A stretch of 63,418 nucleotides of DNA, counting the filler, from Reclinomonas americana ATCC 50394 (lineage: Eukaryota): NCBI GenBank assembly GCA_048213135.1. It is 7 parts of 3 records of this genome, joined end to end, with 100 filler letters (N's around TTAATTAATTAA, not from the genome) between each part and the next. Parts side by side here need not be neighbours in the genome. Positions count along the whole stretch, not along the records: positions 51,286 to 63,418 come from PS015708.1; 6 more parts are not named here. One strand, given 5' to 3'. Position numbers and translations under genes: made by a program. Below the pieces are notes generated by a model, which was not told the DNA's origin, made no database searches, and saw only the letters and a list, made by a program, of their open reading frames with translations. How positions within the stretch are numbered: position 1 is the first letter of the stretch; each line of letters opens with the position of its first letter. Below are positions 475 to 63,418 of the stretch, piece after piece.

Positions 475-1319
475 CCAATTGCAATTGCGATAGATTTACA
501 ACAACATCAACAACAACAAGATCTACAGCTACTGCAGCTACTCACAACCTCGCAGCGCAACGTGGCCGGCGGCCCTAGCTAAATGGCACAAACCAACATC
601 GACACGGAACGGGTGGGCTGTACGCGGAATGCGCCCCAGATGCATGCAGATTCAGTATCTTCGGTCGTCACTTGTCGATTTCGATATCGATATGTCGCGG
701 TTTTTGTTCGATCTCGGAATTCTGCTGCCACCAAGATCAGAATTAACGCTCACTTTTCGGAACTTACTCGGTACCATGATGTTGCCTATTTGTCATGTTG
801 CGGGTGGTTGCCGAATTTACCAATATTGAAAGAGGAGTGAATTCGTGAAAACATGCATGCATGTACTCGTAGTTCACATTACACGCTGTGTTGGATGCAG
901 TGCGCGAGTGCCATCGCTTGTGCGCGTATCATACAGCGTCGACCTATGCGTGTCCAGCCGTGTGCTTGACTGCAATTTGACGCCGAATTGGACTCAATCA
1001 TTTATTGCGTCCCCCACTCATATCAGTCCGGCACCACCACGCATCCCCACTCTTCGTCTCGCTCGCTCTTCCTCTCTCTCCTCTGCATCACGACTCGCTC
1101 GTGCAGCACGTTCGTTTCCGAAACGGTGAGACTTTGTTCGTGACAGTCTGTGTCGACAAGAGCTAGCTGCTCGACTGACTCGTCTGCATCTCTTCCACAC
1201 GCATGCAGAGGGCGGCGCACATGCACACACACGGAGGGTTGCTAGCGACGTCTGCAGCACGGAGGCCATCATTCGCAACATCAATGTGTGGGAACCGTTT
1301 TGCGCCGTCGTGTACGCAC

Positions 1320-4300
1320 ATGTCGTCCCTCGTGCACCACAACCACCACAACCACCAGCGCCAACTGCATCGACCTCTACCCAACACCATCTCTCCTCTC
1401 GTCGCCATCGTCGTCATCGCAGCACTGGCCGTCTTGGCTGCCCCAGTGTGCGGCCAGATGGACCCCATCGTCAACACGAGTGCCGCCTCGTCACCGACTC
1501 AGAGCAGTGTCGTTCTCAACGCCTCCGTCAACCCCAATGGAGCATCCACTGCCACGAACGGATTCTTTGAGTACGCTGAGTTGCAAGTGAGCACAGAGCA
1601 GTTGGCGGCAAATGTCGGCACCACGAGTGGACATATGACCTATGATGCCGCCGGTAACCTTGTAATGACATCCACGAACGCGCACGTTGTGCGCCGCATC
1701 AGCACAACTGGCGTGGTGACACACGTGGCTGGAACGAGCGGCACTTCAGGATCTACAGATGGGACTGGCACCGCCGCCCGGTTTAACGGTCCAGTTGGCA
1801 TCGCCGTTCACTCACCTTCCGGTGACTATCTTGTGGTTGACAGGGGAAATCGAACGCTGCGACGAGTTGCGTGTATTTATCGCGACCCGCTTGCTGATAG
1901 GAGGGTAATTCAAGTTATCACTGCACTCCCACAGGTGACGGCTGGTGGTGTCGTGACGACATACGCAGGAGTCGCAGGCGTGACTGATTATGTGGACGGG
2001 ATAGGTTCAGCAGCTCGGTTCAGCTCACCGAACGGACTTGCCATCACCACCAACGGTTCTGTGTTATATGTGTGCGATTCAAGCGGACTCCGTGCTGTTC
2101 AAACGACAACTGCCACTGTTTCGACAGTGACTACCAGCGTGTCGTGTTTCGGGATCGTCATTGGATCGACCGGCCAAGAAGTGTTCGTGACGGGTGCCCC
2201 GGGTGTATCGAAAATTGTTCTCAGCACGACGACTGTATCGACCGTAGCAAGTAGCAGTATCAATTCTGGAAGAGCAGACGGTGTGGGCACTGCAGCGTCG
2301 TTCTCGACGACACTTGGTGGTCTGGCAATGGACGCTGACGGCAACCTGTTTGTGGTGGACGCTGGCAACTCCTGCATCCGCCGAGTGACGCCCTCTGGCA
2401 GCGTGATGGCATACGCTGGACGCTGTGATTCAGGCAGTGGCAGTGCTGACGGCGCGGGTAGCATTGCACGCTTCACCCTAGTCAACACAAGTGGCATCGT
2501 GTTCAACAGCCAATCCAACTCGCTGCTGGTGGCTGATGCCAAGGGTAACTGCAGTGATTTTTCTTCTCCTTGCTGCAATGTGTTGCCTTCTCGCTAAACG
2601 TGTATCTCACAGGCCTCCGTCGGATCTCCTATCCGACCACGTTTTCAGTGGCAAGTGCGTCGCCGGCTAACTTGACGGGCACCACGGCGGTGTCTGTTTC
2701 TGCCACCATCTCTGGTCTGTCGCCATCGACCACCTACGTGTTCCAGGCAGCGGCGACCAACAACAATGGAGCCACTGCGATGCGTGGTTCGGCACAGCTT
2801 GCCACGACTCTCAACCTGCCAACGCTGGGAACGCCTACATTTTCGAAATCGTCTCTAACCTTGACTGTGACTTGCCCAATCACCACCAACAACGGCGGCG
2901 CCTGTGCAGTAACTGTGACACTCTCGACGGCTTCCAATATGTCACCCGTCTTGCAGACACTTACGGCCTCCAGCTCCGTCACCTCTGCCACGGCGGGCAC
3001 CACCGTCTCCGCCACAGCCTCGGGATTGACGTCCAACACCACCTTCTACTTTCGGTGTGCGGCAGTACCGGCGAGTGACACCAGTCAGTCCGTGACCAGC
3101 TCAGTGGCCTCTACGACGACGTCTCCACTCCCAGTTATCGTTTCAACAAGCATTACGTCCAGCACATCGTCGTCGGTGACAGTTGCTGTGACGATGAACC
3201 CTAAAGGCAGTGCGGAAGTGACTGTTGCTTTTGATTACTCGACGGACGGCAGCTTCAATATCGGCGTGCAGTTGTGGTCCGTGGTCACCCCGACTGGAAC
3301 GCAGACTGGTACAAGTAATATCGCGGTGTCTGCAACAGTGACTGGACTCAATGGCAGCACCAGGTGGTACTTTCGAGCACGTCTCACTTCCTCAGAGCTC
3401 GTCCCGCCACTGTTGGGAAGCACCGTGACGGCGAGTACTGTAAGTACGACGTCATCGAGCATCAGCCCCGTGTCTGCGGTCCTCAATGCAACTGTGTTGC
3501 CGCCGAGCGGAGACAGTGTTACGTCCTTGACATTCCAGTTCTCCTCCACAGACCCTATACTTGTGACGAGTGTGACAACTGTTTCCTCGGTGACCCCAGC
3601 TGCTCCGTACATGGGAACTTCTATCATTGCTGTGTCTGGCACCGCCACCGGACTCAGCCCTTCAACACAGTATTGGTTTCAGGTGGTTCTCGTCACTGCA
3701 GCGGGCACCGTCAACAGCACACCAGTGTCATTCACCACGCTGACAATGCCGACATGGAGCACACTCTCGGCGACTGATGTGCAGCAGAGCACGGCCACTC
3801 TTCGCGCCTTACTGAATCCGAACACGGTTCCGCTGGTGCCGTCTGTTACAACCGGTGCGGCAGTCGGCACCTCCACGTCAACCACCACGGTGAACGGAAC
3901 TGTCAACGCGAACGATGCAGCCTCCACGACCAGCGCGTGGTTCGAGGTCGGTGAACCTGTAGTGAGTACTTTTGCGAGCGCCACGCCCGCGAATCTTGCG
4001 GGACTCGTAGCCGATGCCTCAGGCAACCTGTACATGGCAAGCAGTACTCGGACAGCCGTCGTGCGAGTGACATCTGGCGGTGTTGTCTCGACCTTTGCCG
4101 GCAGTACATCAGCAGGAACTGCGGATGGAACAAACGCGAGTGCTTCCTTCAAGAACATTACCGGCCTTGCAGTGCACCCCCCCACTGGCGATCTCTTCGT
4201 CGTCAGTGGGAAATCCACTAGTCCTTCCTACTGCGCAGTTCGCCGAGTGTCTGTGGCATCTGCCACTGTGAGTACTTTTGCGGGCACATCGACCAGTACA

Positions 4301-7300
4301 TGCGCCTTGTCTTCGAATTCTCCAAGCGGTACCGGAAGTACTGCGAAACTTGGAGCTGATTCGAGCGGAGCTGCAATGCGCAGTGACGGCTCCATTCTGT
4401 ACATCGGTGGCTCCACCATACCGGTTCAGCAGCTGACGATTCCGGGAGCCGCAATCTCTGCAGCCCCAGGAAGTGAGGCATGCCAGGCTTCATTTGCAAC
4501 ACAGTTGGTAATAGACCCCAGCGACACATACGTTATAATTAACCCAACCTCCGACAAGTTGTGTCGGTACAACACTGTGTCACAAACTGTAGATCTCACG
4601 ATAGTGGCAGCCGTACCCCCGCAAAACGTTGATACAGTGGGACCTACTGTTAACTTTATCGGGACGTTTTCCGCGTTAGCGTTTGATAACGAAGGGTTTT
4701 TGTACTTCGGAACCTCCTCTCCCACACAGGGAGGTTGTATTCGGTAAGGGCGTGTTCTGTTACGAACTTTGTTGCGTTGTCATTCGTGCTCACTCTTATC
4801 TCTGCGGTGACACAGTAAGTACGACTTTGTAAACGCTGTCATGAGTACCTTTGCTGGCACCTGCGGTTCGACTGGGACAGTCATTAATGGAGTAGCGTCT
4901 GCGGCCCGATTTTCATCGTATTCTCCGCATGTTGCGTACCACGCAGCTTCAGGGTCGTGGTTTGTCGGCGACGTTGACAACATGGTGATCCGAAGAATCA
5001 GCATGCCGTCGACATTCACGTCGACCACCGCCACGCCGCCAACTGTCAGCGGATCATCATCGACTGCAGTTGGCGCTGCTGTGAGTGCACTTCCAGGCAG
5101 AACGTACTTTTATCGCACGGCTGCAAGCAACGACGCTGGAATGACGGTTGTACGTGGATCGCTGTCGTCTTTTGTTGGGTGTTTCAGCTCTCCCGTCTCC
5201 ATCAATATCAGTGCCAGCATGCCCGCATACACGGCAACTACTGTTGCACTGACAGCTTCTGTTTCACTCAACAGCAACATTGTGTCAGCGGTTGTCTTCC
5301 AAGTGACGGTATCGACAGACACGTCATTTGCAAATGCCTCCTTGGTCACGCGACCTGCTGCGGAAGCTATGCCCCTCGTCGGTATTACGATGGCAACGTC
5401 ATTAAGTAGTGGAACAATATCTGGCCTGACTCCTTCCACTGCTATGCGCTGGCGAGTCTGTGCAACTGTGAGTGGTGTAGCAACGCAAGTGTGTTCATCT
5501 TCCACCTTCACGACAAGCGCGCTGCCCTCAGTCACGACAAGCAGTGCGACCCTGACAGCACTTGACTCTGCCACCCTGGCTGGTTCTGTGAACCCAAACA
5601 ATAGTGCGACTGTGACATTCGTATTTCAAGTGTCACTGGACTCCACGTTTGCGACTGGTGTTGTCATTGTATCAAGCACGTCGCCTGCAGGTCCGTTTAT
5701 AGGGAACTCCTTGCAGACCGTAACCGCCACTGTCACTGGTCTGTTGCCGAGTCGTACATATTACTTCCGTGCTGTTGGCACTTCTGTTGATGCACCATCT
5801 GGGGTATCCGACGTGCCCAAATCTTTCTCAACTGTCCTCACCTTGGCAGCCACAAGTGTCGCGCCAGTGTCCGCTGTTCTGAATGCCTCACTCGACCCTG
5901 GCGCACTGGGTGCTGCGAGTGCTTCATTTTTGTATTCCACGTCGCCAACGCTCGCCACCGGCGTAGTCACCGTGATGTCCGTGTCGCCCGCTGGCCCATA
6001 CTCGACCCCCGGTGCTGTTGCGATCAGTGCGGCTGTCAGTGGGCTGTCAGCCAGCACCACGTACTTCTTCCAGGTGACGGTGACCATCAACTCAACCACG
6101 CTGAGTGGTGCCATCTTGTCGTTCTCCACTCGTCCGCTTCCGGCGCTGACAACCACGGCTGCCACCGCGGTGGTTGCTAGTAGTGCTATTCTCAACGCCT
6201 CCGTGGGCACCAATGGTGGCAGTACTGTGACGGTTTCGTTTCAGTACTCGACAGACTCGACCTTCGCTACTGGTGTGGTGACTGTCTCCAGTATCTCGCC
6301 GACCGCGACTGTGACTTCAACAGCACCCATCAGTATTAGTGCGACGGTTACTGGCCTCAGTCCTCCTCTTGTTTACTACTTTCGCGTGGTTGGTACGACG
6401 GTGGACTTGACTGCACCACAACTGGGTACAGCTCTTTCGTTTTCCACCGTGGAAACATCAGCAGTGACCGACCTGACTCCGCAGAGTGTGTTGTTCCGCG
6501 GCGCACTGAATCCTGCTGGCCAGAGCTGCACTGCTGTGTTTCAGTACAGCACGTTGTCGACACTGGCCACGGGCGTCATCACCGTGAGCGTTTTGACGCC
6601 CTCGTCACCTTACACTGGCACCACTCGCATCGATGTCGCGGCCACTGTCACTGGTCTCACTCCGCTGACGACGTACTACTTCCGCTTTGCTGTGACAGTG
6701 ACGGCCACAATGCAGGTGCTGCAGGGTGCGATTCTGTTCTTCATCGCCCCCGGCAACCCCACTGTCACGACGGTGGCCGCCTCCTCTGTGTTCCAGACGA
6801 CAATCACCCTCAACGGCACTGTTGATCCGAAAAACAACAGCGCAGTCACCGTGACGTTTGAGTACAGTCTCGTTGCGGACCTGTCAAGTGGCGTGACGGT
6901 GGTGACGACAACCACGCCGGCTGGGCCGTTCTCTGGCAGTGGATCGCAGACAGTGTCGGCGGTCGTTGCCGGCCTCCAACCAAACACGAGCTATTCGTAT
7001 CGTGTGGTGGCTGTCGTGGTTGGCAATTCGCCGCAACGCGGTTCAATTCTCACGGCAACAACCCCCGGGCTGCCGGTTGTGATGATCGGAAGTGCCACGA
7101 TTATAACAGCCGGGTCGGCGACACTGTCAGCAACGGTGAATCCTTCCAATGGTCGCGCCGATACAGTGTCATTCATTGTGGCCACCGACGCCGCGTTCAC
7201 CGCCAATGTGATCACCGTGTCGAACACCACTCCTGTTGCGCCCATCACGGGATCCGCTCCTGTGACTGTCACTGCCGTTGTGAGCGGACTCGGCCCAGCC

Positions 7301-10300
7301 ACCACGTATAATTTCAAGTTCGCAAGCACTGTTCAGGGTGTATCGCCAGCGCAGGAGTCCATGTCGGCAACATTTGCAACGCTTAACGTGCCATTGGTTG
7401 TGAGTCTGGCGGCCGTGGTGACAGGCCCGACATCTGCGACGCTGGGAGGCAGTGTGAATGCGCAAGGTGGATCGACGGTCACCGTGTCGATCGAGTTCTC
7501 CACATCCATGACGTTTGCGAATGGTGTGCTCACTGCATCTGCAGTGTCGCCAGTCACCGTCAGCGGCACCAGCACCGTGAATGTGACTGGTAGTGCAGCC
7601 GGTCTCACGATAAGCACGCAGTACTACTTCCGCATTGTGGCCACCACGAGTGGTGGAGCGTTTGTGCGATACGGCAACGTGGTTCCATTTACACCGTTCA
7701 ACCTTCCTGTTGCCACCAGCTCATCCGCCACTGTGACGAGCGCCGTGTCAGCGACGCTGAGTGGCAGTGTGAATGCGCAAGGTGGACCGACTGTCACTGT
7801 GTCGATTGAGTACTCCACGTCCATGACGTTTGCGAGTGGCGTACTGAGTGCGTCGGCAGTGTCACCGACCACGGTCAGTGGCGGCATGGACACGGCAGTG
7901 ACAGGAAGTGCAACGGGCTTGGCACCCAACACGCAGTACTACTTCCGCGTTGTGGCCACCACGAGTGGTGGAGCGCCTGTGCAGTACAGCAATCCGCTGC
8001 CATTCACCACGTTCAAATTGGCCACTGCCACCAGCTCACCCACCACTGTGACGAGCGCCGTGTCAGCGACGCTGGGAGGCAGTGTGAATGCGCAAGGTGG
8101 ACCGACAGTCACTGTGTCGATCGAGTTCTCCACATCCATGACGTTTGCGAGTGGCGTACTGAGTGCGTCGGCAGTGTCACCGACCACCGTCAGCGGCAGC
8201 GTGGACACGGCAGTGACGGGTAGTGCAACGGGCCTGACACCCAACACACAGTACTACTTCCGCATTGTGGCCACCACGAACGGTGGAGCGCCTGTGCAGT
8301 ACAGCAATAATACGCTGCCATTCACCACATTCAAGTTGGNNNNNNNNNNNNNNNNNNNNNNNNNNNNNNNNNNNNNNNNNNNNNNNNNNNNNNNNNNNNN
8401 NNNNNNNNNNNNNNNNNNNNNNNNNNNNNNNNNNNNNNNNNNNNNNNNNNNNNNNNNNNNNNNNNNNNNNNNNNNNNNNNNNNNNNNNNNNNNNNNNNNN
8501 NNNNNNNNNNNNNNNNNNNNNNNNNNNNNNNNNNNNNNNNNNNNNNNNNNNNNNNNNNNNNNNNNNNNNNNNNNNNNNNNNNNNNNNNNNNNNNNNNNNN
8601 NNNNNNNNNNNNNNNNNNNNNNNNNNNNNNNNNNNNNNNNNNNNNNNNNNNNNNNNNNNNNNNNNNNNNNNNNNNNNNNNNNNNNNNNNNNNNNNNNNNN
8701 NNNNNNNNNNNNNNNNNNNNNNNNNNNNNNNNNNNNNNNNNNNNNNNNNNNNNNNNNNNNNNNNNNNNNNNNNNNNNNNNNNNNNNNNNNNNNNNNNNNN
8801 NNNNNNNNNNNNNNNNNNNNNNNNNNNNNNNNNNNNNNNNNNNNNNNNNNNNNNNNNNNNNNNNNNNNNNNNNNNNNNNNNNNNNNNNNNNNNNNNNNNN
8901 NNNNNNNNNNNNNNNNNNNNNNNNNNNNNNNNNNNNNNNNNNNNNNNNNNNNNNNNNNNNNNNNNNNNNNNNNNNNNNNNNNNNNNNNNNNNNNNNNNNN
9001 NNNNNNNNNNNNNNNNNNNNNNNNNNNNNNNNNNNNNNNNNNNNNNNNNNNNNNNNNNNNNNNNNNNNNNNNNNNNNNNNNNNNNNNNNNNNNNNNNNNN
9101 NNNNNNNNNNNNNNNNNNNNNNNNNNNNNNNNNNNNNNNNNNNNNNNNNNNNNNNNNNNNNNNNNNNNNNNNNNNNNNNNNNNNNNNNNNNNNNNNNNNN
9201 NNNNNNNNNNNNNNNNNNNNNNNNNNNNNNNNNCCACTGCCACCAGTTCATCCGCCACTGTGACGAGCGCCGTGTCAGCGACGCTGAGTGGCAGTGTGAA
9301 TGCGCAAGGTGGACCGACAGTCACCGTGTCGATCGAGTACTCCACATCCATGACGTTTGCGAGTGGCGTACTGACTGCATCTGCAGTGTCACCGACCACC
9401 GTCAGCGGCAGCATGGACACGGCAGTGACGGGTAGTGCAACGGGCCTAACACCCAACACACAGTACTACTTCCGCATTGTGGCCACGACAAGTGGTGGAG
9501 CGCCTGTGCAGTACAGTGGTGCGCTGCCATTCACCACATTCAAACTGGCCACTGCCACCAGCTCGCCCGCGACTGTGACAAGTGCCGTGACGGCGACGCT
9601 GGGAGGCAGTGTGAATGCGCAAGGTGGACCGACAGTCACCGTGTCGATTGAGTACTCCACATCTATGGCGTTTGCGAGTGGCGTACTGAGTGCGTTGGCA
9701 GTGTCGCCTGCGACCATCAGCGGCAGCATGGACACACCAGTGACAGGAAGTGCAACGGGCTTGGCACCCAACACGCAGTACTACTTCCGCATTGTGGCCA
9801 CCACGAGCGGTGGAGCGCCTGTTCAGTACAGTGGTGCGCTACCATTCACCACGTTCAAACTGGCCACTGCCACCAGCTCGCCCGCGACTGTGACAAGTGC
9901 CGTGTCGGCGACGCTGAGTGGCAGTGTGAATGCGCAAGGTGGACCGACAGTCACTGTGTCGATCGAGTACTCCACATCCATGACGTTTGCGAGTGGCGTA
10001 CTGANNNNNNNNNNNNNNNNNNNNNNNNNNNNNNNNNNNNNNNNNNNNTTAATTAATTAANNNNNNNNNNNNNNNNNNNNNNNNNNNNNNNNNNNNNNNN
10101 NNNNCTGCATCTGCAGTGTCGCCTGCGACCGTCAGCGGCAGCATGGACACGCCAGTGACAGGAAGTGCGACAGGCCTGACACCCAACACGCAGTACTACT
10201 TCCGCGTTGTGGCCACCACGAGTGGTGGAGCGCCTGTGCAGTACAGTGGTGCGCTGCCATTCACCACGTTCAAGTTAGCCACTGCCACCAGCTCGCCCGC

Positions 10301-13300
10301 GACTGTGACAAGTGCCGTGTCGGCGACGCTGGGAGGCAGTGTGAATGCGCAAGGTGGACCGACTGTCACTGTGTCGATTGAGTACTCCACATCCATGACG
10401 TTTGCGAGTGGTGTGCTGAGTGCGTTGGCAGTGTCGCCTGCGACCATCAGCGGCAGCATGGACACACCAGTGACAGGAAGTGCAACGGGCTTGGCACCCA
10501 ACACGCAGTACTACTTCCGCATTGTGGCCACCACGAGTGGTGGAGCGCCTGTGCAGTACAGTGGTGCGCTGTCATTCACCACGTTCAAACTGGCCACTGC
10601 CACCAGTTCGCCCGCCACTGTGACAAGTGCCGTGTCAGCGACACTGAGTGGCAGTGTGAATGCGCAAGGTGGATCGACTGTCACCGTGTCGATCGAGTAC
10701 TCCACGTCGATGACGTTTGCGAGTGGCGTGCTGAATGCGTTGGCAGTGTCACCGACCACCGTGAGCGGCAGTGTGGACACGGCAGTGACAGGTAGTGTAA
10801 CAGGCTTTACACCCAACACGCAGTACTACTTCCGCATCGTGGCCACCACGAGTGGTGGAGCGCCTGTGCAGTACAGCAATGCGCTGTTATTCACCACGTT
10901 GAGACTGCCAGTGCCGGTGGCCGGTAGCGCATCCCCAACAAGTCCAGTGGCAGTGGCTCTCGTTGGCTCTGTAGATCCATCCAGTGCTCTCGCCGTTGCC
11001 GTCTCCATGGAATACTCTGCATCTGCGACTTTCGTCATCGGCACAGTGAATCAAGTGACTGGCGTGTCACCTGCTGTGGTCGGTGGCACCTCGTCTGTGT
11101 CTGTCTCTGCCTCACTCACTGGCCTTACTCCGGCCACGTCGTACTACTTTCGAGTGGTGGCCAGTGCTGGTGGTGGTGTGCCTGTGCAGTTGAGTGCGCC
11201 ACTGGCATTCACCACTCCGCCCCCTCCCGTGGTTCTCGGCACCAATGTGGATTCCATCGCGTTCACTGGCGCAACAGTGACAGTCTCCATTGACCCTCAA
11301 CATGTGGCGATGGGGGCCGCGCTTGCCGTTCTTCATGTGTCCACCGATGCAGCATTTGGCAGCATGAACATGACTACTGTGACTCTGCCGACCATGCCTC
11401 CGATCGCGGGAACTGCGGCAGTGTCGCTGACCGCGAAGCTGACGTCCCTCACTCCGGCAACACAGTACTACGTTCGTGCCCGCTGTGTGTTGACCAGTGG
11501 CACGTACAGCGTCACCGGCAGCGTCGTCACCTTTTCCACCGCTCCAGCATGTGCTCAACCGACGTTTGGCACCAACTGTGAAGGTTGCGTGCCGGAGCAC
11601 AAGCTTGCAAGGGCGTTGACTATCCAACAGATCCATCCTCTCTCACACCGTGCTCGTTGTGCATGCAGGTCGTGTCGACTCGCTGTCTCCACTGCTGGTG
11701 AACCAGTATGGAACGACCACATTCACCTTGCGCGGCAGTCAGCTGCTGCCAACAGGTCTGCTCTTGCCAGCACTTGATTCGCGCTTCTGCTTCTTGCCTC
11801 TCACTCGTCTCTCCGTCTGTGCAGATCGGATCCTGTTCACTACAGATCCAGGCTCCTGTTCCACCACTTCTGCTGCAGCACCAGCACTCGCAGCCGATGC
11901 ATCAAGCACCACTGTGAGCCCGGACGGCAAGCAGTTGACCGTGTCCATCCGTGCCACCTCTCTGGCCACTGCCAGTCCATCCACTCCGTTATTTGCATGC
12001 CTTCAGTTGCGTCAGCGCCTCCTTTTGGTGTTGATGGGCTCTCCTCGCATCTCACCGCTGTTGGCAGGCGAGCACCGTTTGCCATTTCGTACCCTGTGAG
12101 CGCGATGGGTATTCGCATCGACAAACAAGGTGCATCCTCGTCGACAGCAGCAGCGTGCACGTGTCTCTGCACCATCGTTACTCACACTTGTGATAATGCA
12201 GAGCCGTCCATCACTCGCATATTGCCTTCTGTTCTGAGCAACATGGTGTCCACTCCGGTGACACTGGAAGGACAACGATTGCCAGAGAGTGACATGCTGG
12301 CGCTGCTGGTGGAATCGCCTTCGTCGTGCGCCGGTGGTGTGGCGGCTGCTGGAACATCTCTCGGCGCGTTCTCAGTGACTGCCTCTGGCACTGTTGGCGT
12401 GGCACAGTTCACTCCGTCGCCACTGACGTCGGGATCGCTGCCGTCGTACTCGGCGCTGATTTTGTGTGTGCGGTATGAAGAAACGCAGTGGTGCTTCTTG
12501 TACGCGTGTGTGCCGTCGATTGACGTGTCTTGGTCTCGGTGCAGGTATTCTACGACTGGCTCGTTCCGACCTGTCACCCGGCTCGACTCAGTCAGCGTAG
12601 TTGGTGACTCCTATGTGTAATCTCCCCTTGTTGCATGACACCAATTCTCACATGTGCACACGCTGGCGCCACACAGCTCCTGCCGCATCAACAGTGCAGC
12701 CAGCGACTGTCACCAATCTGGTGCCATCCACACTCACCATCACCGGCAATTTGCTGCCACCGAGTGGAGTTGAAGTGGTCTTGCGACAGAAGACAACCGC
12801 CGCTGCCTCCGTCAATGCGTGCGCCGTGGCGAGTGGTGGTGGTCCGCTGTTGACTGATGTGGACGACGTGACACTCGGGCAAGTGATGGTGCAAAGTGCC
12901 GCACAAGTGACCGTGACAGTGACTCCACTGCGCACTGGCAACAACAGTCCTCCAGTGCACGATCGACTGGCGCTGTGTATACGGTGAGTTGCTGGGTGAT
13001 CACCGTCATGTTCGTGTATCTCAGCATCCCTCACACACTCTCTCGCCAGCATGTCATCGCGTCATGCGTTCCAAGAGCTGGGACCAATCGCCGTTGTTGG
13101 TTTCGTTTCACTCATTTTCGAAGTGCCGTCCTCCTTTGCGCTCATGCGCCCTCCACAGGGCCCACATTCACAACATTCTCGCCTCGTCAGCTGCGACCAG
13201 CAGTTCCATCTGTGGTCACCCTCAACGGCCAGTCGTTCCACCCCGACGATCACGTGTTTGTCTTTGCAAATGGAACCGTCACATCACAAGCAGGCCGTGG

Positions 13301-52232: not shown

Positions 52233-55200
52233 TCATGACAAGGACTCCGCGTACAACCCATCCGGAAAGCGCCTCATCAGCGTCTGCGCATGCTCCAGAT
52301 CGTTCACACGATGGATGCTCACCGAATCATCGGTGGTCGGCTCGAGAAAGGCCGTTCGCACGTGGTCGACCTCGTGGAGGCGCATGTCGGAGGCGAAGTG
52401 GATCGGCAGTCCAGACTTGACAAAGTAATGTGGGAAGCCGCAGTCCTCGCTCCCCACACGGTTGATCGCCGAAATGGAGGTGGTGCGTCGCAGAAACTCC
52501 ACCAGATCCCACGACACAAAGTAGGCGGCGCCGAGTGGGCACTCGAAGATTTGCATATCACGCGAGGTCACAAAGCCCTGTCCCCACAACAGTCGCTCGC
52601 GCGGCAGTCGTCGCAGCTCGCGCTCAAATAGCACTGGGCGCGAGAACACGTCCATGTCCACACGGCCGACGTAGCGCAGTGTCTTGCGATGTCCATACAC
52701 GTCGTGCGCAAACGCTTGCCACTCCTTGTTCTTGCCCTGCCGGCAACTGTCGCGCACGTCCATGAACGCAATGTCACCGTGTGTCGAGTACTCCTCGTGC
52801 AGCTGCCGCAGATGCGTGGCAGTGGAGAAGCGTGGCCGACCAGTCACGAAAATCACTTGCACCGTGCCGTTCGGGTTGTGCTGCGGGTGATACACGTTGC
52901 GGTAGCGCATCCATGTCTGTCGTGCGCGCTCACGAGCTACAAAGTCCACGTCAGTGCACCAGGCGCCGACGAGAATGCGCACACGCGGACCGAGTGGTGG
53001 AGGTGGGTGGGCGCGCACAAAGCGCGAGCCGAATATAATGCGCTCGACCAGCGGCGGCTCATTGCGGCCCGAGTTCATCTGGAAGCCGTGCAGCAATGGT
53101 GCGATACTCGGCAGGGCGCGCCTGTATCGCCAACGTTCGTACGGACCCGGCAAGCGCAGCGAGACATGCTCGTCGACGTCGCCCGACCACTCGGGTGGTT
53201 GCGGGAGTGGTGTTGCGGGGAGGAAGCGCTCGTACACGGTGGAGGGTGGCTGTGTGAGATGGAAGGAGAAAAGAGAGAGAGAGGGAAATGAGGTCAAGGA
53301 GTTCCTTCCCATATGCCGAGCAATTGCAAACACGCCTTCTGTCTCTCATTCTCGCTCTCGTTCTCTTTTTTTGGTCTGTTTGTGCATGTGCTGTTTGTCT
53401 GTCTTTCCCTCTCTCTCTCCTCGCTCCCCAACTCTCTCTTCTCCTTCTTCCTCACCCCTCCCTCCCTCTCTCTCTTTCTACACACGCACCACAAAGAACC
53501 ACGCGATGAGCTGTGCGCACAAACGCCCACAAGAGTAAGAATGCAAGAACGACACGAGCAATGCAGCACTTGATATGAGTTCTCCACCTCGGGTTCACGC
53601 ACGCAGCGCTCGGCCGCGGCTCGAACAAGCGCCGGCTCATCAAGATCCTTCTTGATGCGATTCCAGTACGGATGCCGATCACCGACGCAGAACGACGGCA
53701 GTTCGTCCGGCAGCGGTCCACCTGGAGAAGAAACAAATTGAGCAAGGCTCCAAGACAGCGGAACAAGAAGAAATGAGAGCGCACCAGGAACGGCGACTCC
53801 AGGCACCGCAAATGCGTAGTACGTTTTGGGAATGGAGGGGCCTTCTAAGGGAATGCTGAATCCCTTGCGCAGGTACTCGATGCGCGACAAGCGAAAGTCC
53901 ACTGGCTTGGGCTGCGCGCACAGAGCGTGAGTGGAGAGGGTGAAGGAGCGACGAGTGGGAGACGACGGGAACCTCTGGCATGTTCCGTTCCAACTGCACG
54001 CGCATGGCCAATTCCATGGCCGGCACGAACACCGTCTCCAGCTCTTGCACTCTGGCAAACTCCTCGGCTGCGCGCATCGATCAGCAGGAGGCACTCACCA
54101 AATGAGACGAGAGAGCGGCAGTTCACCGATGAGGCGCACGTCAGAGCCGTCGACAGCGACCGACAACAAGTGCACGCGTCCACGAAGCACGAGACCGACA
54201 CGGCGTCGTGGAGAAGACGACAGCTGCATGAGTGAAGCGGGCTGTAAAACAGGTGATGTGAGCTGCAAGGGAACGAGAAAAGGGGAGAAGGAGGCCAAGG
54301 AGGAAGAGAAGGACGAGGATGAGGAGGAGGAGGAGAAGAAGAAGAAGAAGGAGGAGGAAGAGAAGGAGAAGGACGGGAGGAGGAGATTCAGGAGGAAGCA
54401 GAGCCAAGGCAGCAGGAGACCAAGGAGAAGAAGAAGAACGAAGATGATAAGAACACGAACAGCAAGCAGAGAACTCGGATGAAGCAGAAACAAGGCAGGA
54501 GGAGATGACGGAGAAGAAGTAGAAGGAAGATGCAGAGAACACGAACAGCAAGAAGAGAACGTAGAGGGAGGAGAGCAAGGGAAGGAGAAGCTGAAGAGCA
54601 CACGAACAGAGGAGGAAGGAGATCGAGGACGAGGACAGGTGCAGGAGTGCGTGATGCTGCGACTCACCACTCGCTCCACCGTCGTGAAGGGCAAGAAACG
54701 CGGACTGGAGTGCGCCCACAGTCCCTTCTCCAGCAGCGCATGCTGAACCAACTCCATCACCAGCTCAGCGTAGACGGTCTCTTTCAGAGGGCCAAGTGAT
54801 GACTCGACTGCGACAAGAGCATCATGAGCGACGATGACAAGAGAGAGAGAACAGTCACCTCTCCCTCGCCTCCTCTCCTCTCTCTCTCTCTCTCCTCTCT
54901 CTCTCTCGTCGTACGTCTCNNNNNNNNNNNNNNNNNNNNNNNNNNNNNNNNNNNNNNNNNNNNNNNNNNNNNNNNNNNNNNNNNNNNNNNNNNNNNNNNN
55001 NNNNNNNNNNNNNNNNNNNNNNNNNNNNNNNNNNNNNNNNNNNNNNNNNNNNNNNNNNNNNNNNNNNNNNNNNNNNNNNNNNNNNNNNNNNNNNNNNNNN
55101 NNNNNNNNNNNNNNNNNNNNNNNNNNNNNNNNNNNNNNNNNNNNNNNNNNNNNNNNNNNNNNNNNNNNNNNNNNNNNNNNNNNNNNNNNNNNNNNNNNNN

Positions 55201-55798
55201 NNNNNNNNNNNNNNNNNNNNNNNNNNNNNNNNNNNNNNNNNNNNNNNNNNNNNNNNNNNNNNNNNNNNNNNNNNNNNNNNNNNNNNNNNNNNNNNNNNNN
55301 NNNNNNNNNNNNNNNNNNNNNNNNNNNNNNNNNNNNNNNNNNNNNNNNNNNNNNNNNNNNNNNNNNNNNNNNNNNNNNNNNNNNNNNNNNNNNNNNNNNN
55401 NNNNNNNNNNNNNNNNNNNNNNNNNNNNNNNNNNNNNNNNNNNNNNNNNNNNNNNNNNNNNNNNNNNNNNNNNNNNNNNNNNNNNNNNNNNNNNNNNNNN
55501 NNNNNNNNNNNNNNNNNNNNNNNNNNNNNNNNNNNNNNNNNNNNNNNNNNNNNNNNNNNNNNNNNNNNNNNNNNNNNNNNNNNNNNNNNNNNNNNNNNNN
55601 NNNNNNNNNNNNNNNNNNNNNNNNNNNNNNNNNNNNNNNNNNNNNNNNNNNNNNNNNNNNNNNNNNNNNNNNNNNNNNNNNNNNNNNNNNNNNNNNNNNN
55701 NNNNNNNGTCGTCGTCGTCGTCGTCCTCGTTCGTTCTCGTCGTCGTACGTCGTACTACTCCGTCGTCCGTCCGTACGACCGTCGACCTCCTCCTCCTC

Positions 55799-55855
<57 letters not shown>

Positions 55856-56319
55856 GTGTGTCCCTTATTACTTGTCTCGCGATCGTTTTATTTCACTCTC
55901 TCACTGCCTCCCTCGTTCTCTCTCTCTCTCTCTGCGTGTGTGTCTCTTGTTACTTGTCTCGATCATTCACTCTCTCACAGTCTCACTCCCTCGCTCTCTC
56001 TCTCTCTCTCGTACACATGCACACTTTCCCGCGCTCTCTTCAATCTCTCTCTCTCTCTCTCCCTTTGCAGACACTCACCCGCTTGCTTGATGGTCTTGAT
56101 GGCGGGGTCCTCCCATGACACCGTCACAGGCAGCTCCACGCGCTTCTTGTTGCCCAACTTGTAATCAACGGTCAACTCGCGAATACCTAGTCGACGCGCC
56201 TCGGCCAGTTCATCGAAAACCGGCGGTACAGCGGCCACACTGAATGAGGCTGTGACAATGACAAGGAGGAGAGGGAGAAGGAGGAGGAGCAGGAGAGGGA
56301 GGTGTGCCCGGGGAAGCAT
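52233..56319 (-). CDS. GT31-like glycosyltransferase, tandem copy 3 (spliced)
   Basis: Same architecture. 5' exons are diverged (MLPRAHLPLLLL...WEDPAIKTIKQA) while the catalytic exon is very similar to copies 1 and 2. Confidence 0.8.
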
Positions 56320-56686
56320 GCGACACAAACTCAAAATCTGAACCGAACAACAGTCGACCGGTATTTCATTCTCGGCGTGCATCAACGAGTCGATCGCGAG
56401 AACTGCGCGACGGGGAATACCGCGATGGCAATGGCAAGGAGATGGAGTAGGAGGAGGACGAGGAGGGGAGAAGTGTGGCGCAGACATATCGATTGTAAGC
56501 GAACGAAAGCATCCGGATCCGGCTGAATGACATCGCAGACTCGACAAGCCTCTCCGTGTTGTCTCGTGTCACCTGCGCGGCTATGTACTTCTGTTCCTTC
56601 CCGCACAGGATTGGTCAAGAGAATACAACACCAATACCCTGCTTTCCGAAGCCGCATCACTCTTTTACACATTCGTCCCTCTTGCC

Positions 56687-58867
56687 TCATCTCCCGCAAC
56701 ACTTCTTCCTCGGTCCCTTCTCTCCCTCCTGATCCACGCCACTACCTTCGCCCTCGACTTTCTTCGGCGACGTCAACTGAAACGCTTCGACCGACGACTC
56801 GTCAAACGGGGGCGGTGGCATCTCCTGCAACACCTGCGCCACCTCCATCACCACCTGCCGCACGAGACTGCCGCCGTCCGCAAGTGCCGACACACATCCA
56901 CTGCACATGACGTAACGGCAACGGTGAGTGAGTGAATGTCGCACTGTCTTGTTTCACACTCGTGCGTGACGCAACAGCGACGTTACGTGGTATTGTTGAC
57001 ACCACTCGCTTTCGTATGTGCAATCGACTTGCACGCGATCAGCCAGGTCGGCCTTGTTGCCCAGTAGCCAGAACGGAAGCTGGCGTCCGTTGTTTCGCGT
57101 GCGCGAGGCCACCTCCACACTCTTCTTGAGGTGTGTGAGCAGCTGCGGGAGGGAAAGTGAGGAACGAGGGGAGAGGAAGCGGTGTAAATGAAAAATCAGC
57201 CGACTCACGTCGAAAGAGCGAAAGTCAGTGACGTCGTACATCAGCAGGCAGCCGTGGACACCGCGCACAAAGCTCTGCAACATGGTGTTGCGGAGGCGGA
57301 CGTCGCCGGCCGTGTCGATGAGCTGTGTGATGGAACACGGAGGTGAGGACAGTGATTTTGAAGGCGACAGTGTGAGTGTGTGAGAGAGAGGCAGGGCAGA
57401 AAGGGTGCGCACTGGTGGAGAGAGAGAGAGAGTACAATCAAGATGGAAAGGCGCAGAAACGGAGAACACGTACAAGATAAGCAGGCAGAAGGCGAGAGCG
57501 AACTCGAGCGAAGAACCATGTCTTCTCTTATTCAGTGAGAAGAGGAACGAAAGAAAGAGGAAGGGAAGGACAGACAAAAGAGTAAGAAAAAGAGTGACAG
57601 AGAGGGACTGATTTTGCCACCGGCATGTGAGACTACAGAAGGCAACTAGGCATTGTGTCAGCGCTTTCTGAGAGAATGCAGCTCAACCATCTCTGGTATT
57701 GCTGGTGCACACACCTGCACGCTGGCGTACTGGCCGCCGGGAAACTTCACAAAGAGATTGGCGATTTCCACTGTGTGGCAACAAAAAAAAAACACGTCAG
57801 CCAACGCGAGCGCGGTGAGGCACCAAGCAGCAATTCACGAAACTGGCCACTGTTGGCCGTGTGTTTGCCAGCACAACTTCATTGCGCAGCTCTTGATACT
57901 GGCGGGCCAGCGTGGTTTTGCCGACTGCACACGCGCACAGCACAGTCAGGAACAGGAGGAGACACTGCATACTTCTTGCCCGTCCGCATGTCCTCTTTCT
58001 CAAAACCACTCTTCACAGTGTGCAACCATTCTGCTGCTCTTCCCTCACAACTGTCACGCATGCCCATGTTCTCTCACCTGTCACATCGCCAACCACGAGA
58101 ATCTTGATTACCCTCATGGATTGCTCCACAGGCACTGGTATCTGCGCCCGCGTGGTGTAAAACTCGAAGCGATTCCCACCAGTCAGCGGTCGAGCCACAG
58201 CTCTCTTGGGCATCAGCGGCCCTGAACGATTCGACAGCCTCTTGGCGCCGCCCCACACGCCCACGTCTCCGACTCGCAGCGTCACGTCGTACGGTTCGTA
58301 AAACAAAATGTACGTGTCGCGTAGGCGATCTTGCACGCGCGACTCGGAGGCCTGTGTGAAAATGGAAAGTTTGCACTTGTTGCACTCCCAGCTGCAACGT
58401 TCTCTTCGTTCTATTCCAAATGAATGGCGCAGGACAATGCTTCTCCTGATCCTGCCTCTCTCGTAGACCAGGCCAGTAGAGGAGAAAGAGCAACAGCAGC
58501 ACAAGGAGAAGGACGAGAAGAACAAGAAAGGATAAGAAAGAAGAGCAGCAGCAGCAACAATAACAACGACAACAACATCCAGAGGAAACGGAAGTGGAAG
58601 AGGAATTGGATGTAGAAGAGAAATGAGAACGAAATCAGCAACACAACAACACAAGCACAGCAGCAACGACACATAGGAAGAAAAAAGGAGAACGAGAAAA
58701 AAACAACCACCAAACCACAGCAACAAGAACTCGAAGGAGAGACGGAGAAGGAGAAAGGAATAGCAATGACAATATCACCAGCGCAGCACCAAGCACTATA
58801 ACAACCACAACCACAAAAGCAACAACATCGACCTGACATAACAGCAACAAGAACAACCGAAACGGTG

Positions 58868-58921
<54 letters not shown>

Positions 58922-61069
58922 GAAGGGACACGACGGAGAGAAGGAAAAGAAGAGTACGACGACAAAGAACAGCATTCACATTACCTACAGAGCGAAAAAA
59001 ACAACAACCACGACAGCGACAAGAATAATGAAAAGAAGAAAACGGAGAACGAGAACAGCGAACCAAAATCCACAATTGCACAACAACACCAACACAACAA
59101 CAAGAACACAAAGGAGAGATGGAGAAGAAGAAAAGAATAGCATGCATTATCAAACATCATCAACGCAGCACCAACCACAATACTACAAAAGCAACAACAA
59201 CTCCACCAGCAACAAGGACAACCGAAACAACAAGAAACAATAACGATGATAATGACAACGACATAAAACAACAACAACAACAACAGCAACAACAACAACA
59301 ACAGAAGTGACACGAAGGAGAGAAGGAGAAAAAGAGTACGACGACGAAGAACAGCATTCACATTACCACCAGAGCGAAAAATAGCAACAACCACGACAGC
59401 GACAAGAACAATGAAAAGAAGAAAACGGAGAACGAGAACAGCGAACCAAAAAAACCACAATCACCCAACAGCACCAACACAGCAACGAGAACACAAAGGA
59501 GAGATGGCGAAGAAGAAAGGAAAAGCATCATCAACATCACCAGCGCGAGCACAATGCCACAAAAGCAACAACACTGACAGCAACAAAGACGACCGAAACA
59601 ACAAGAAGCAACAACAACAAGAACACGAAGGAGAAAAAGAGAAGATGAGGAGTATGACGCCGAAGAACAGCAACAGCAACCACATTAACATTACATCCAT
59701 CGCAATAACAGCAACAACCACGAAAGCGACAAGAACAATGAAAAAAGAAGGAAAATGGAGAAGACTACTTTCCCTCCCCTTCCCCTTTCCCACTTTCCCC
59801 CCCCCCCCTCTCTCGCGCACTCGCGCCCACGCTCACGCGNNNNNNNNNNNNNNNNNNNNNNNNNNNNNNNNNNNNNNNNNNNNNNNNNNNNNNNNNNNNN
59901 NNNNNNNNNNNNNNNNNNNNNNNNNNNNNNNNNNNNNNNNNNNNNNNNNNNNNNNNNNNNNNNNNNNNNNNNNNNNNNNNNNNNNNNNNNNNNNNNNNNN
60001 NNNNNNNNNNNNNNNNNNNNNNNNNNNNNNNNNNNNNNNNNNNNNNNNNNNNNNNNNNNNNNNNNNNNNNNNNNNNNNNNNNNNNNNNNNNNNNNNNNNN
60101 NNNNNNNNNNNNNNNNNNNNNNNNNNNNNNNNNNNNNNNNNNNNNNNNNNNNNNNNNNNNNNNNNNNNNNNNNNNNNNNNNNNNNNNNNNNNNNNNNNNN
60201 NNNNNNNNNNNNNNNNNNNNNNNNNNNNNNNNNNNNNNNNNNNNNNNNNNNNNNNNNNNNNNNNNNNNNNNNNNNNNNNNNNNNNNNNNNNNNNNNNNNN
60301 NNNNNNNNNNNNNNNNNNNNNNNNNNNNNNNNNNNNNNNNNNNNNNNNNNNNNNNNNNNNNNNNNNNNNNNNNNNNNNNNNNNNNNNNNNNNNNNNNNNN
60401 NNNNNNNNNNNNNNNNNNNNNNNNNNNNNNNNNNNNNNNNNNNNNNNNNNNNNNNNNNNNNNNNNNNNNNNNNNNNNNNNNNNACGAAACGAACGAACGA
60501 ACGAAACGAAACGAACGAAAGAAAGAAAGAAGAACGTACGACTACTCCTCCCTCCTCCCTCCCCCCCCTCCCCCCCCCTTCCCCCTTTTCTTTCCCGTTG
60601 CGCACCTGCGTGCACGACCGCCCGCCTGGCGGCGGATCATCCTCAAACACCAACCACACCGACCCGTCACACCCCGGTTGGTAGACCAGCGTGGAGTACC
60701 GTCCAATCTCTGGACTGCCACCGTCGTGGCAAATGGCCGCCTTGAGCTCCCATCGAAGGTAGCGAATGTCATCGTCCTTGACGGCAGCGCTCGTATCAAA
60801 GAACCGCTGCGTGTGCGTGTGCTCAGTCAACGTGCAAGGGTAGCGCTTCTCAAGAAGATTGCTCACCCTCAAATCCAACGTCACCGGCAACGACACGGAC
60901 TTGTCCGCACGTCCGGCCTCAGCTGTTCGCTCGCGGCGCAACATCAGGCGCACCGGCGAGTACGGATCCAGCAAGTATCGCTGACCACGAGGCGAGCCTT
61001 GTCGGAGAGCACTGCGGAAGCAACGTTGTCAACAGCAACATATTTGAAACTGATTTCCTCGCCCTCTCT

Positions 61070-61106
<37 letters not shown>

Positions 61107-63005
61107 CTCTCGCTCTCCCTTTCTCTCTTTCCCTCTCTCTCGAGCAAGTCTATCGTACCTTTTGCTTGTCGTTCTTTGTTGATCTCTCGCTCTCTCTTTC
61201 CCCCTCATCACACTCACCGCTCCACCAACTCCTCCAGCTGCACATCCGGTTCTCTCTTTGTTCGGTAATGGACGTCGTCGCAGCTGTCGGCCAGTGCAAG
61301 CGGGTTCTCTTCGTCCTCGCCCTCCACCGCACCTCCTCGTCCCGTCGTCGGAACCACCACCTCCAAGAAGTACATGCTTTCCAGTTCGACGGCCTCCGTC
61401 GCTGCTGCTGATGCCGACGGTGCCACACGCAGAGTCAGCACGTCCCTGTTCACAGTACATGACCAATGCAAAAAATGTTTTCAGCGTGCGCAACGCGCAT
61501 AAGGTTGTTGTACGATTCCCCTCCATATTCTCTCCTAAAACCCCCCCTCTCCTCTTCCCCTCCTCGTACGCAACGCTCCCGTGGTGCTGAGCAGAAAGCA
61601 GAGAAAGCTGTGGGCATCCTGGTTGGCCAGATTCACCGTATCCGCGCTCTTCGGCACCGCCCAGCCGCACTCCAAGCAGGCCTGTCGCACCGACTCTGCA
61701 TGCGCCGTGGTCACTTGCAAGCCGTGTCGCAGGGCGTCGAGATATTCCTTGACGGCAGAACGCAGGCGATCGCTGGCGAGACCGGGAATCAGTAAACACC
61801 AACAACAGCGACAACAAGTCACAACTCTTATGAATTTACCGTTTTGTGCGGTCGACCTTGACGGCTGCCGACAAGCTCATGAGCTGGTGCGAGCCGAGCA
61901 GAGCGCTGCGGTTGGCCTCGTGGCGCTGTTGCTGGACGACAAGCAAAGAGAGAGAGAGCAAATGAATACCACTTTGCATGCCGTTGACTTGTGTTTGCTC
62001 GCTTCCCACCGTCATCACCCTGCATCTTTCCTCTCTTGTCTCTCAAGATGTGAGAAAGAAAGAGGAAGCATGAAGAGGACAGGCAAGAGAAAGATGAAGA
62101 TCGCGTTATGTGTGAGAGAGACAGCCTCTCCACATTCCTCAGTACACTATCATGAGCCTCTCTCTCACACGCATACGCTCACTCCCTTTGGCTTTCTCAA
62201 TCCTCAGTGACGCTCTCAGCAACGTTTGTGACCATCTCTTCCCTCTTAGTCTCCCTCCCTCACTCCCTCCTCCATCCCTCCCTCACTCCCTTTCGTCTCT
62301 CTCTCCCCCTTTCTCCGTCTCTCCCTCTCTCTCCTTCTCCCTCTCTCTCCTCCTTCTCCTCTCTCTCTCTCCTTCCCCCTCCCTCCATCCCTCTCTCTCG
62401 CTCGCTCACTCACTCCGTCTGACTTTCTCAATCCTCAGACGCTCTCAGCAACGTTTGTGACCATCTCTTCTCTTTCTCTCCCTCTTTCTCCCTCTCCTTC
62501 TCTCTCTCCCTCTCCGTCTCTCCCTATCCGTTTCCCTCTCCTTCTCTCTCTCCCTCCCTCCCTCTCCCTCTCTTTCTCTCCCTTTTCCCTCTCCCTTCTC
62601 CCTCTCCTTCTCTCCCTCTCCCTTCTCCTTCTCTCCACTCACATTATCACTCGCTCCACTGCCTCCTCCGCCTCCCTGCTGCTGCTCCTGCGCGCCACTG
62701 GCCAGCCTCGTCATGGCCTCGTGAAAGCACGAGGCCACAAAGAGCGCCGACAGACTCGCATGCAGAAACGAGGCCGACTGTGACGGGTGGTCGGTGGGCG
62801 GGTCCACTCGCACGTGCAACAGCGGATTCAGCACCACCTCGTCGCGGAACGACATGGTAATCTTTTCTCGCGCCACACACGAAAATCAGTCGCAACGTTC
62901 CAATTTTGCTTATGTAGACAGACAAAGGGTGAGAAAGTCGCGCGCCACACCGATTTCACGTGACAGACTCACTGGTCGTCTCAGCGCGTGCTCCAAGCCC
63001 CGCAT
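56687..63005 (-). CDS. Fusion protein: degenerate USP (peptidase C19-like) domain plus C-terminal Rab-like small GTPase with CCXX end (spliced)
   Basis: USP boxes: MRGLEHALRRP|SASFLHASLSALF, NQDAHSFLCFLL, VRLMLRR..KSVSLPVTLDL, WELKAAICHDGGSPEIGRY, WLVFEDD..Q|ASESRVQDRLRDTYILFYE. The same exon continues to IKILVVGDVT|VGKTT, then LIDTAGD, GCLLMYDVT, LLGNKADL and RKKCCGR*. Confidence 0.82.
58540..59750. repeat. (AAC)n-rich degenerate tandem duplications inside a long intron
   Basis: Pure AAC run at 58868-58921. Block 58950-59100 is repeated at about 59335-59460. Confidence 0.8.
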
Positions 63006-63213
63006 TTCCCACGCAGCAGAAATTCCGCGGCGAGGCTCCCCTGATGCCAATTCAGAAAAACGCAATGTGTCATTCCCTCCCTCTATGTAGACATCGACGT
63101 CGTGATTGTCGTAAGGTGTTGTATACAGGGTTACACTAACGCACAGTCATCAATCGCTCTGGTCTTCCTTCTTCTTCTTCTCCCTCCCCACTGTCCTCTT
63201 CTTTCTCTCTCTC

Positions 63214-63361
63214 TCAATCGTCCTCTTCATCCTCATCAATGACCATTCCGCCTCCGTACTCCTCGTCTGTATCCTCATCGTCGTCAATCTCCTCGTCTTC
63301 CCTTAGCGCATTCGCCGCCGAGGCCACCGCCACAGCTGCTTTCCGTGCCGCAGCGCGTCCA
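63214..63361 (-). CDS. Last exon of an upstream gene with an acidic C-terminus
   Basis: Acceptor ttgcag, then GRAAARKAAVAVASAANALREDEEIDDDEDTDEEYGGGMVIDEDEEDD*. Confidence 0.55.
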
Positions 63362-63418
63362 CTGCAATAAAACGAAGAATAAGAAACTGAAAAATAGATG
63401 GTGCGGGTAAAAGGAAAA

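Follow-up and report, generated by a model that had tools for sequence, protein, structure and literature searches.

Introduction

Rabs normally work through separate effector proteins, and ubiquitin-dependent sorting normally proceeds through separate receptors. Among described proteins, the large Rabs (Rab44, Rab45/RASEF and CRACR2A) have a C-terminal Rab domain that follows a long N-terminal region with EF-hand and coiled-coil regions. Within the ubiquitin-specific protease (USP) family, USP6/TRE17 contains a TBC domain, similar to Rab GTPase-activating proteins (GAPs), and USP32 carries a C-terminal prenylation signal; PAN2/USP52 is a pseudo-USP joined to a C-terminal enzymatic domain, an exonuclease, and USP39/Sad1 has a spliceosomal role. 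Rab44 and Rab45 have been treated as multidomain proteins (PMC3192815), USP32 has been reported to deubiquitylate Rab7 (PMC6440979), and USP39 has been called an inactive deubiquitinating enzyme (PMC8565343). Here we describe a gene of Reclinomonas americana ATCC 50394 (NCBI GenBank assembly GCA_048213135.1) that is probably a real, lineage-restricted fusion, encoding a multidomain Rab-like GTPase with a degenerate USP-derived N-terminal domain. It lies on the minus strand of a 63,418-nucleotide stretch of DNA, called the window below, which consists of seven parts of three genomic records joined end to end with filler; positions count along the window, and the gene falls in the part taken from PS015708.1 (positions 51,286 to 63,418).

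In the reading that we favour, and that we consider moderately probable as a whole, the locus is a single 11-exon gene. Its product of about 680 residues would comprise a degenerate USP12/46-like domain (about 400 residues, most likely no protease), a linker of about 60 residues and a C-terminal, divergent Rab-like GTPase ending in CCGR.

This layout resembles that of the large Rabs in placing a Rab-like domain at the C-terminus, after a long N-terminal region with other domains. Exons 1–6, however, showed no EF-hand or other Pfam family, and the similarity found there is to a USP, unlike in the large Rabs. The likeness is one of layout only, and nothing points to common descent. As in USP32 and USP6, a USP-family domain would have a functional link with membranes and with the Rab system; those two are active enzymes that work on or beside separate Rabs, whereas here the USP-like domain, probably inactive, forms one polypeptide with the GTPase itself. 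With PAN2 and USP39 the product would share a USP fold stripped of its catalytic residues and kept for structure or binding, but the partners differ (an exonuclease in one case, a spliceosomal role in the other), and we liken these proteins by architecture.

A USP-type end motif and a GTPase P-loop in one frame

The junction between the two halves lies inside one sequenced exon, exon 6 (58351–58078). Its acceptor, tttcacacag/GCC at 58351, begins a codon, and exon 5 ends with a complete codon at 60606 (ACGCAG/gtgcgc). The motif TYILFY is encoded at 58315–58298, and the same frame runs onward through a Met (58117–58115) to the residues G-D-V-T at the 3′ end of the exon. The stop-free run in this exon spans 69 codons and reaches the start of the P-loop, whose GKT opens the next exon (from 57924). 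A reading of this DNA made from the sequence alone (the sequence-only reading) had proposed that the exon at 58351 opens with a USP-type end motif and continues stop-free into the P-loop, that the phase 0 donor at 60606 is compatible with the acceptor at 58351, and that the fusion is independent of an assembly gap. The minus-strand frame bears out these proposals: both splice sites fall at codon boundaries, and since the run of N's (59840–60483) is contained within the 2,254-base intron 5, the domain junction does not depend on it.

Codon usage was scored as log-odds after training on nothing but the window's other open frames, and exons 2, 7 and 8 lay outside the scored set. In every exon region scored, the frame of the model was positive (+5.2 to +28.3) and the other two frames were negative, and three intron regions, including the proximal 300 nucleotides (nt) of intron 5, were negative in all frames. 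The 174-nt linker (58291–58118) scored +15.6 in the shared frame against -28.5 and -24.9 in the other two. This argues that the linker is translated together with both domains, rather than forming the 5′ untranslated region (UTR) of a separate Rab gene, and it is the best evidence here for translation of the joining stretch in a common frame. The GC content of third codon positions was 0.63–0.87 in exons, and the overall GC content of introns was 0.44–0.55.

The complete model runs from the ATG at 62855 to the stop at 56687 and comprises 680 codons without an in-frame stop. For an earlier version of 689 codons, the other two frames contained 22 and 15 stops, and 2,000 base shuffles averaged 22.6, never falling below 9; the zero-stop statistic is partly circular, because the exon borders were picked to keep the frame open.

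The Rab-like C-terminal half

Exon 9 alone matched Pfam Ras with 25.4 bits (cut-off 21.6, E 1.2e-5), and exon 10 reached 15.4 bits (E 0.014), under the cut-off. Searched against the PDB, exon 9 gave 177 matches at E<=1, led by Rab1a (6e-6); the 60 listed include 59 under the names Rab, Ypt1 or Sec4 and one simply under 'GTP-binding protein'. The contiguous frame formed by exon 9, intron 9 and exon 10 gave 65 PDB matches at E<=1e-3, the best being Rab1A (5e-7), and the 60 matches listed comprise 59 of Rab, Ypt1 or Sec4 and one of RhebL1, a closer relation to Rabs than to other branches of the Ras superfamily, which holds for the region from switch II to G4 only. Exon 10 by itself gave 14 matches, with RalA first, and with NKIRAS1 and Rab9 (E 0.08–0.7); exon 11 by itself gave no GTPase match in the PDB.

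The nucleotide-binding motifs comprise G-x4-GKT, which is split across exons 6 and 7, DTAG, NKAD and a G5-like SAL (56890–56882). Directly before the stop, the product ends in CCGR (56701–56690), and CCXX is a motif for Rab geranylgeranylation. When set beside Rab1/Ypt1 and other Rabs (Pfam PF00071), the domain thus shares the P-loop, DTAG, NKAD, SAL and a CCXX-type end, and its switch II and following strand are closest to Rab1A. It differs in that Asp replaces the catalytic Gln that follows DTAG and Ile replaces the Trp ahead of it, that switch I is poorly Rab-like, and that the GTPase is preceded by about 465 extra residues. The Pfam Ras match, the Rab matches in the PDB and CCGR agree with the earlier description of this half as Rab-like with a double-Cys end, and we conclude that it is clearly Rab-like, a divergent GTPase of this type whose nucleotide binding is probably intact. 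Ras-family Gln mutants hydrolyse GTP poorly, and by analogy with them the Asp at the position of the catalytic Gln suggests that GTP hydrolysis is probably poor here.

The USP-like N-terminal half

USPs are recognised by a QQDAHEF box, a His box containing G-H-Y, and C-terminal W..FDD and Y.LFY motifs. The product contains corresponding motifs in USP order: QDAHSF at residue 153, a His-box-like motif at 339, WLVFEDD at 363–369 and TYILFY at 392–397, the last two following the His box in the order of W..FDD and Y.LFY. In exon 5, H-x-G-x5-G-R-Y is encoded at 60728–60696 and WLVFEDD at 60656–60636. Expectations based on composition, calculated for 689 residues, were 3.7e-5 for [AST]Y[IL]LFY, 1.2e-4 for QDAH.F and 1.4e-3 for W..F.D[DE], figures that are indicative only, as the patterns were picked after the sequence was seen.

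A phmmer search of exon 5 against 177,635 distinct PDB sequences returned three matches, all to USP46, with E-values (0.32–0.35) that are not significant alone. The alignment with USP46 begins at the strand that precedes the His box and stays in register up to the FDD-type motif. The Atlas neighbours of exon 5 were UCH clusters at 0.92, 0.91 and 0.91, with family agreement in all ten of the best matches that have a family; the shared-feature counts (129–133) lie in the range of chance matches or distant relatives. Because these two independent methods pick the family that the sequence-only reading had named from motifs, and because the alignment is in register, we judge it very likely that at least the exon 5–6 region descended from a USP.

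The catalytic His of USP46 (G-H-Y) faces an Arg (60701–60699) in the G-R-Y of exon 5, and the His expected of a USP His box is thus missing. In exon 1, which had no Pfam match, a USP Cys box is not recognisable; a Cys first occurs in the product at residue 43, where Phe follows it, in surroundings that depart from the USP signature. The product also contains no paired CxxC zinc ribbon after the QDAH box. Compared with the minimal USPs of the USP12/USP46 type (MEROPS C19, Pfam PF00443), the N-terminal half is alike in that USP46 is the only PDB protein matched by exon 5, in the order of the QDAH-type box, His-box-like motif, W..F.DD and Y.LFY, and in its size, about 400 residues without accessory USP domains, which fits a minimal USP. 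It is unlike them in having Arg for the catalytic His, no recognisable Cys box, no paired CxxC zinc ribbon and no Pfam UCH match on any single exon, and in the GTPase attached at its C-terminus.

The replacement of His by Arg and the lack of a recognisable Cys box make protease activity unlikely, and the Arg aligned with the catalytic His of USP46 fits the earlier suggestion of a pseudo-deubiquitinase. USP53 and USP54, long annotated as inactive, have been shown to be active (PMC12037411), a case which indicates that inactivity inferred from sequence can be wrong.

Gene model and splicing

All ten introns of the model are GT-AG introns, and all ten acceptors are cag (Table 1). The sequence-only reading had placed the start of the gene at 63005. 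We replace it with the ATG at 62855–62853, which is the likelier start codon because no other ATG precedes it in its open frame and because the sole usable mini-exon acceptor from 63005 is aag, unlike all others. A first gene model of 689 residues used odd donors (gttttagg after exon 3 and gtcgct after exon 10) and was superseded by the 680-residue model with gttgcg. Across the gene, the four longest plus-strand frames matched no Pfam family, and Rfam and tRNA scans of the whole window gave no matches.

Table 1. Exons of the gene and its longest intron, in order of transcription
Feature	Positions	Strand	Observations
Exon 1	62643..62855	-	ATG 62855-62853; donor GATAAT/gtgagt; codon log-odds +28.3 in frame
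Exon 2	61840..61931	-	92 nt; cag acceptor, gtaaat donor
Exon 3	61575..61772	-	QDAHSF at 61621-61604; donor GGGAGC/gttgcg; codon log-odds +14.2
Exon 4	61218..61445	-	228 nt; codon log-odds +16.4; no PDB and no Pfam matches
Exon 5	60606..61011	-	USP His-box-like region; phase 0 end CAG/gtgcgc; codon log-odds +17.3 against -65.1 and -96.7
Intron 5	58352..60605	-	2,254 nt; N gap 59840-60483; T/G-rich low-complexity DNA with (GTT)n runs
Exon 6 (junction exon)	58078..58351	-	TYILFY, linker, Met, GTPase strand 1, first half of P-loop; donor TGACAG/gtgaga
Exon 7	57844..57924	-	GKT of P-loop and switch I region; donor TGGCCA/gtttcg
Exon 8	57715..57770	-	56 nt; GTPase strands 2-3
Exon 9	57209..57322	-	DTAG and Asp at 57316-57302, then switch II and a Rab-family-like stretch
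Exon 10	56976..57142	-	NKAD at 57058-57047; donor GTCGCT/gttgcg
Exon 11	56687..56900	-	SAL, last helix, acidic/Pro-rich tail, CCGR, TGA 56689-56687; codon log-odds +23.3

Intron 9 (57143–57208, minus strand) has 66 bases, is in frame and is stop-free; its retention would add 22 residues inside the GTPase and keep the frame. Its translation shows a weak phmmer alignment to the third helix of Rab1A. Its gtgagt donor, pyrimidine-rich tract and cag acceptor led us to keep it as an intron, as did the NKAD spacing, which fits Rab1 better in the spliced product.

Three of the ten donors of the gene are of the GTT type, at 61574 and 56975 (both gttgcg) and at 57843 (gtttcg), all on the minus strand. 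If cDNA confirms these donors, a GTT-type 5′ splice site would be tolerated in this organism.

Search for relatives and for a described architecture

Word-based searches against longer proteins yielded 117 candidates for exon 6, none of them at E<=0.01, and 544 candidates for exon 5, none at E<=10. The GTPase region, searched in a 242-residue read-through frame against proteins of 425–2000 residues, yielded 124 candidates, again with none at E<=10. A metagenome scan with exon 5 produced 354 pattern matches and no relatives. The gene is an orphan in the libraries searched, and is lineage-restricted on present evidence.

Two candidates were rejected as spurious. The lone match of exon 5 in a phmmer search of 1,835,955,588 protein representatives (E 2.4e-5) is a 1,256-residue bacterial repeat protein of the GH25/MBG type, in which the alignment recurs at the repeats. 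A metagenome locus from the scan with exon 6 (372 pattern matches) showed 41% identity over 39 residues, and the match falls within a 51-codon frame on a 1,660-base contig without USP or GTPase context.

Open-access literature, searched to a limited extent, contained no paper in which 'USP domain' and 'Rab domain' occur together, in agreement with the earlier remark that the architecture is undescribed. Ubiquitinating and deubiquitinating enzymes have been surveyed across 50 genomes, and the terms GTPase, Rab and Ras are absent from the main text of that study (PMC3670738). In a Rab census, the term 'ubiquitin' is likewise absent, and Rab44 and Rab45 are the sole multidomain Rabs named (PMC3192815). 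We provisionally regard a fusion of USP and Rab as not described before.

Alternative explanations

Points that weigh against the fusion lie in the gene model, at the boundary between the halves and in the USP-like half, and each is taken here with the alternative on which it bears. The gene model, and with it the fusion, was assembled by coordinates from genomic sequence. Intron 5 (2.25 kb, with the assembly gap) is far longer than the other introns (66–711 nt) and could accommodate an internal promoter; Met 58117 is found four residues ahead of strand 1, as in a normal small-GTPase N-terminus, and is a possible start of a free-standing small GTPase. The locus might in that case give two products, a small Rab-like GTPase that begins at Met 58117 and is made from a transcript initiated in intron 5 or exon 6, with the USP-like exons expressed separately or as a minor long isoform; long and short forms have been reported for Rab44 (PMC8016136). 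We consider this arrangement unlikely. The USP frame reaches the GTPase without a stop, and a USP-only protein would therefore require an event such as retention of intron 6 (stop 58015–58013). The 174 nt from the USP tail to Met 58117 are coding-like in the shared frame only, which would be unexpected for a 5′ UTR, and a short isoform would in any case be compatible with the long one.

The single-gene model also requires three weak donors: gttgcg, which follows both exon 3 and exon 10, and gtttcg, which follows exon 7. A stronger-looking gtacga donor, 4 bases downstream at exon 3, is out of phase, as is a stronger gtaacg donor at 56986 in exon 10 relative to the acceptor at 56900, and at both junctions the frame needs gttgcg. 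Because this one hexamer resolves both conflicts, we think it likely that it is a tolerated donor in the organism. Weak donors are also what would be expected of a decaying, non-functional fusion, in which a deletion or rearrangement joined a USP gene and a Rab gene and drift then removed the catalytic His, the Cys box and the catalytic Gln and weakened the splice sites. Such decay would fit the replacement of key catalytic residues in both halves, the unmatched Pfam UCH and the absence of a relative from every library searched. It is nevertheless improbable, given 680 codons without an in-frame stop (15–22 stops in the other frames of the 689-codon version), coding-like codon usage in every exon region scored, and intact G1, G3, G4 and G5-like motifs and prenylation end. 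As to the USP assignment, the sequence-only reading had given a USP fold to the whole N-terminal stretch of about 400 residues. Weak similarity, to USP46 and to UCH clusters in the Atlas, was confined to the exon 5–6 region and did not extend to exons 1, 3 and 4, where PDB searches gave no USP match (exon 3 gave three chance matches). The Pfam scan for UCH and Ras that had been suggested as a check was run on single exons; it placed Ras above the cut-off on exon 9 and found UCH nowhere (none of 10 single-exon translations matched at E<=1, and none of 5 when the limit was E<=10). Exon 6 as a whole matched nothing in the PDB or Pfam, exon 5 found no USP at E<=1e-3 by phmmer among 1,835,955,588 protein representatives, and a stricter His-box pattern fails where the relaxed H.G.{5}G.Y matches. 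Together with the USP46 E-values, the Atlas counts and an uninformative AlphaFold2 prediction of exon 5 alone (mean predicted local distance difference test score 34.5), these results would suit an N-terminal part unrelated to USPs, that is, a Rab-like GTPase with a long N-terminal extension in which the motifs occur by chance and which has no significant match to any USP. We regard this as very improbable, since the PDB search (USP46 only) and the Atlas (UCH clusters) independently give the family named beforehand, the alignment is in register across the His box and the FDD-type motif, and three more motifs stand in the right order, with post hoc expectations of 1e-3 to 4e-5 each.

Possible function and significance

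The preferred reading, a degenerate USP-like domain joined to a divergent Rab-like GTPase in one protein, suggests a possible mechanism, built on a USP fold, inactivity, prenylation, membrane targeting and ubiquitin binding that we infer from sequence. The double cysteine would carry geranylgeranyl groups and, in concert with the nucleotide state of the Rab-like switch, would anchor the protein on an endomembrane. With Asp in place of Gln, both intrinsic and GAP-stimulated GTP hydrolysis would probably be slow, making the switch more of a long-lived membrane address. On that membrane the USP-like domain, dead as an enzyme, would be a module for binding, and the most economical guess at its ligand is ubiquitin or a ubiquitin-like protein. 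In its most specific form, which we find doubtful, this proposal describes a Rab-like membrane switch with a built-in ubiquitin reader, whose dead USP domain, held on a specific endomembrane, would bind the ubiquitin of cargo without removing it. If this were true, one polypeptide would both mark an organelle and capture ubiquitinated cargo, a sorting route undescribed in any model organism.

A Rab-type switch welded to a domain derived from a ubiquitin protease would be a compact example of coupling between trafficking and ubiquitin signalling, and the fusion would be a further instance of an inactive enzyme put to new use in binding. It is, on present evidence, one gene of restricted lineage from a draft assembly, and has the weight of a lead rather than of a result.

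Surroundings in the window

The window, part of a draft assembly of a GC-rich eukaryote, contains many N gaps; its GT-AG introns are short, tracts of (GA)n, (CA)n and (GTT)n are abundant, and its GC content is about 0.41–0.62 in 4-kb steps. Immediately upstream of the fusion gene, a neighbour at 63214–63417 (minus strand) has an acidic tail weakly like the C-terminus of a 60S acidic ribosomal protein (E 0.016, below the cut-off). Its stop lies about 360 bases from the start codon of the fusion gene, showing tight gene packing.

Very long, apparently intronless frames of 472 to 1,749 codons, some of them broken by N gaps, occupy 1179–11777 (plus strand) and 28992–36005 (minus strand). Their products contain Thr/Ser/Ala-rich repeats, NHL repeats and many fibronectin-III-like units (Pfam fn3, with N-terminal domains of the Pur_ac_phosph_N and PhoD_N type), and the frames resemble a gene cluster for large repeat proteins of the surface or secreted kind. 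An exon-like frame at 20839–21450 (plus strand), adjoining a 50-N gap, encodes a mitochondrial carrier repeat (Pfam Mito_carr, 2.4e-6). Three tandem galactosyltransferase-like paralogues lie at 46086–47141, 49161–50450 and 52233–53345, all on the minus strand and each followed by similar low-complexity flanks. The one of the three that was checked matched Pfam Galactosyl_T (2.3e-5) and had Galactosyl_T clusters as its Atlas neighbours, and the trio looks like a recent local gene amplification.

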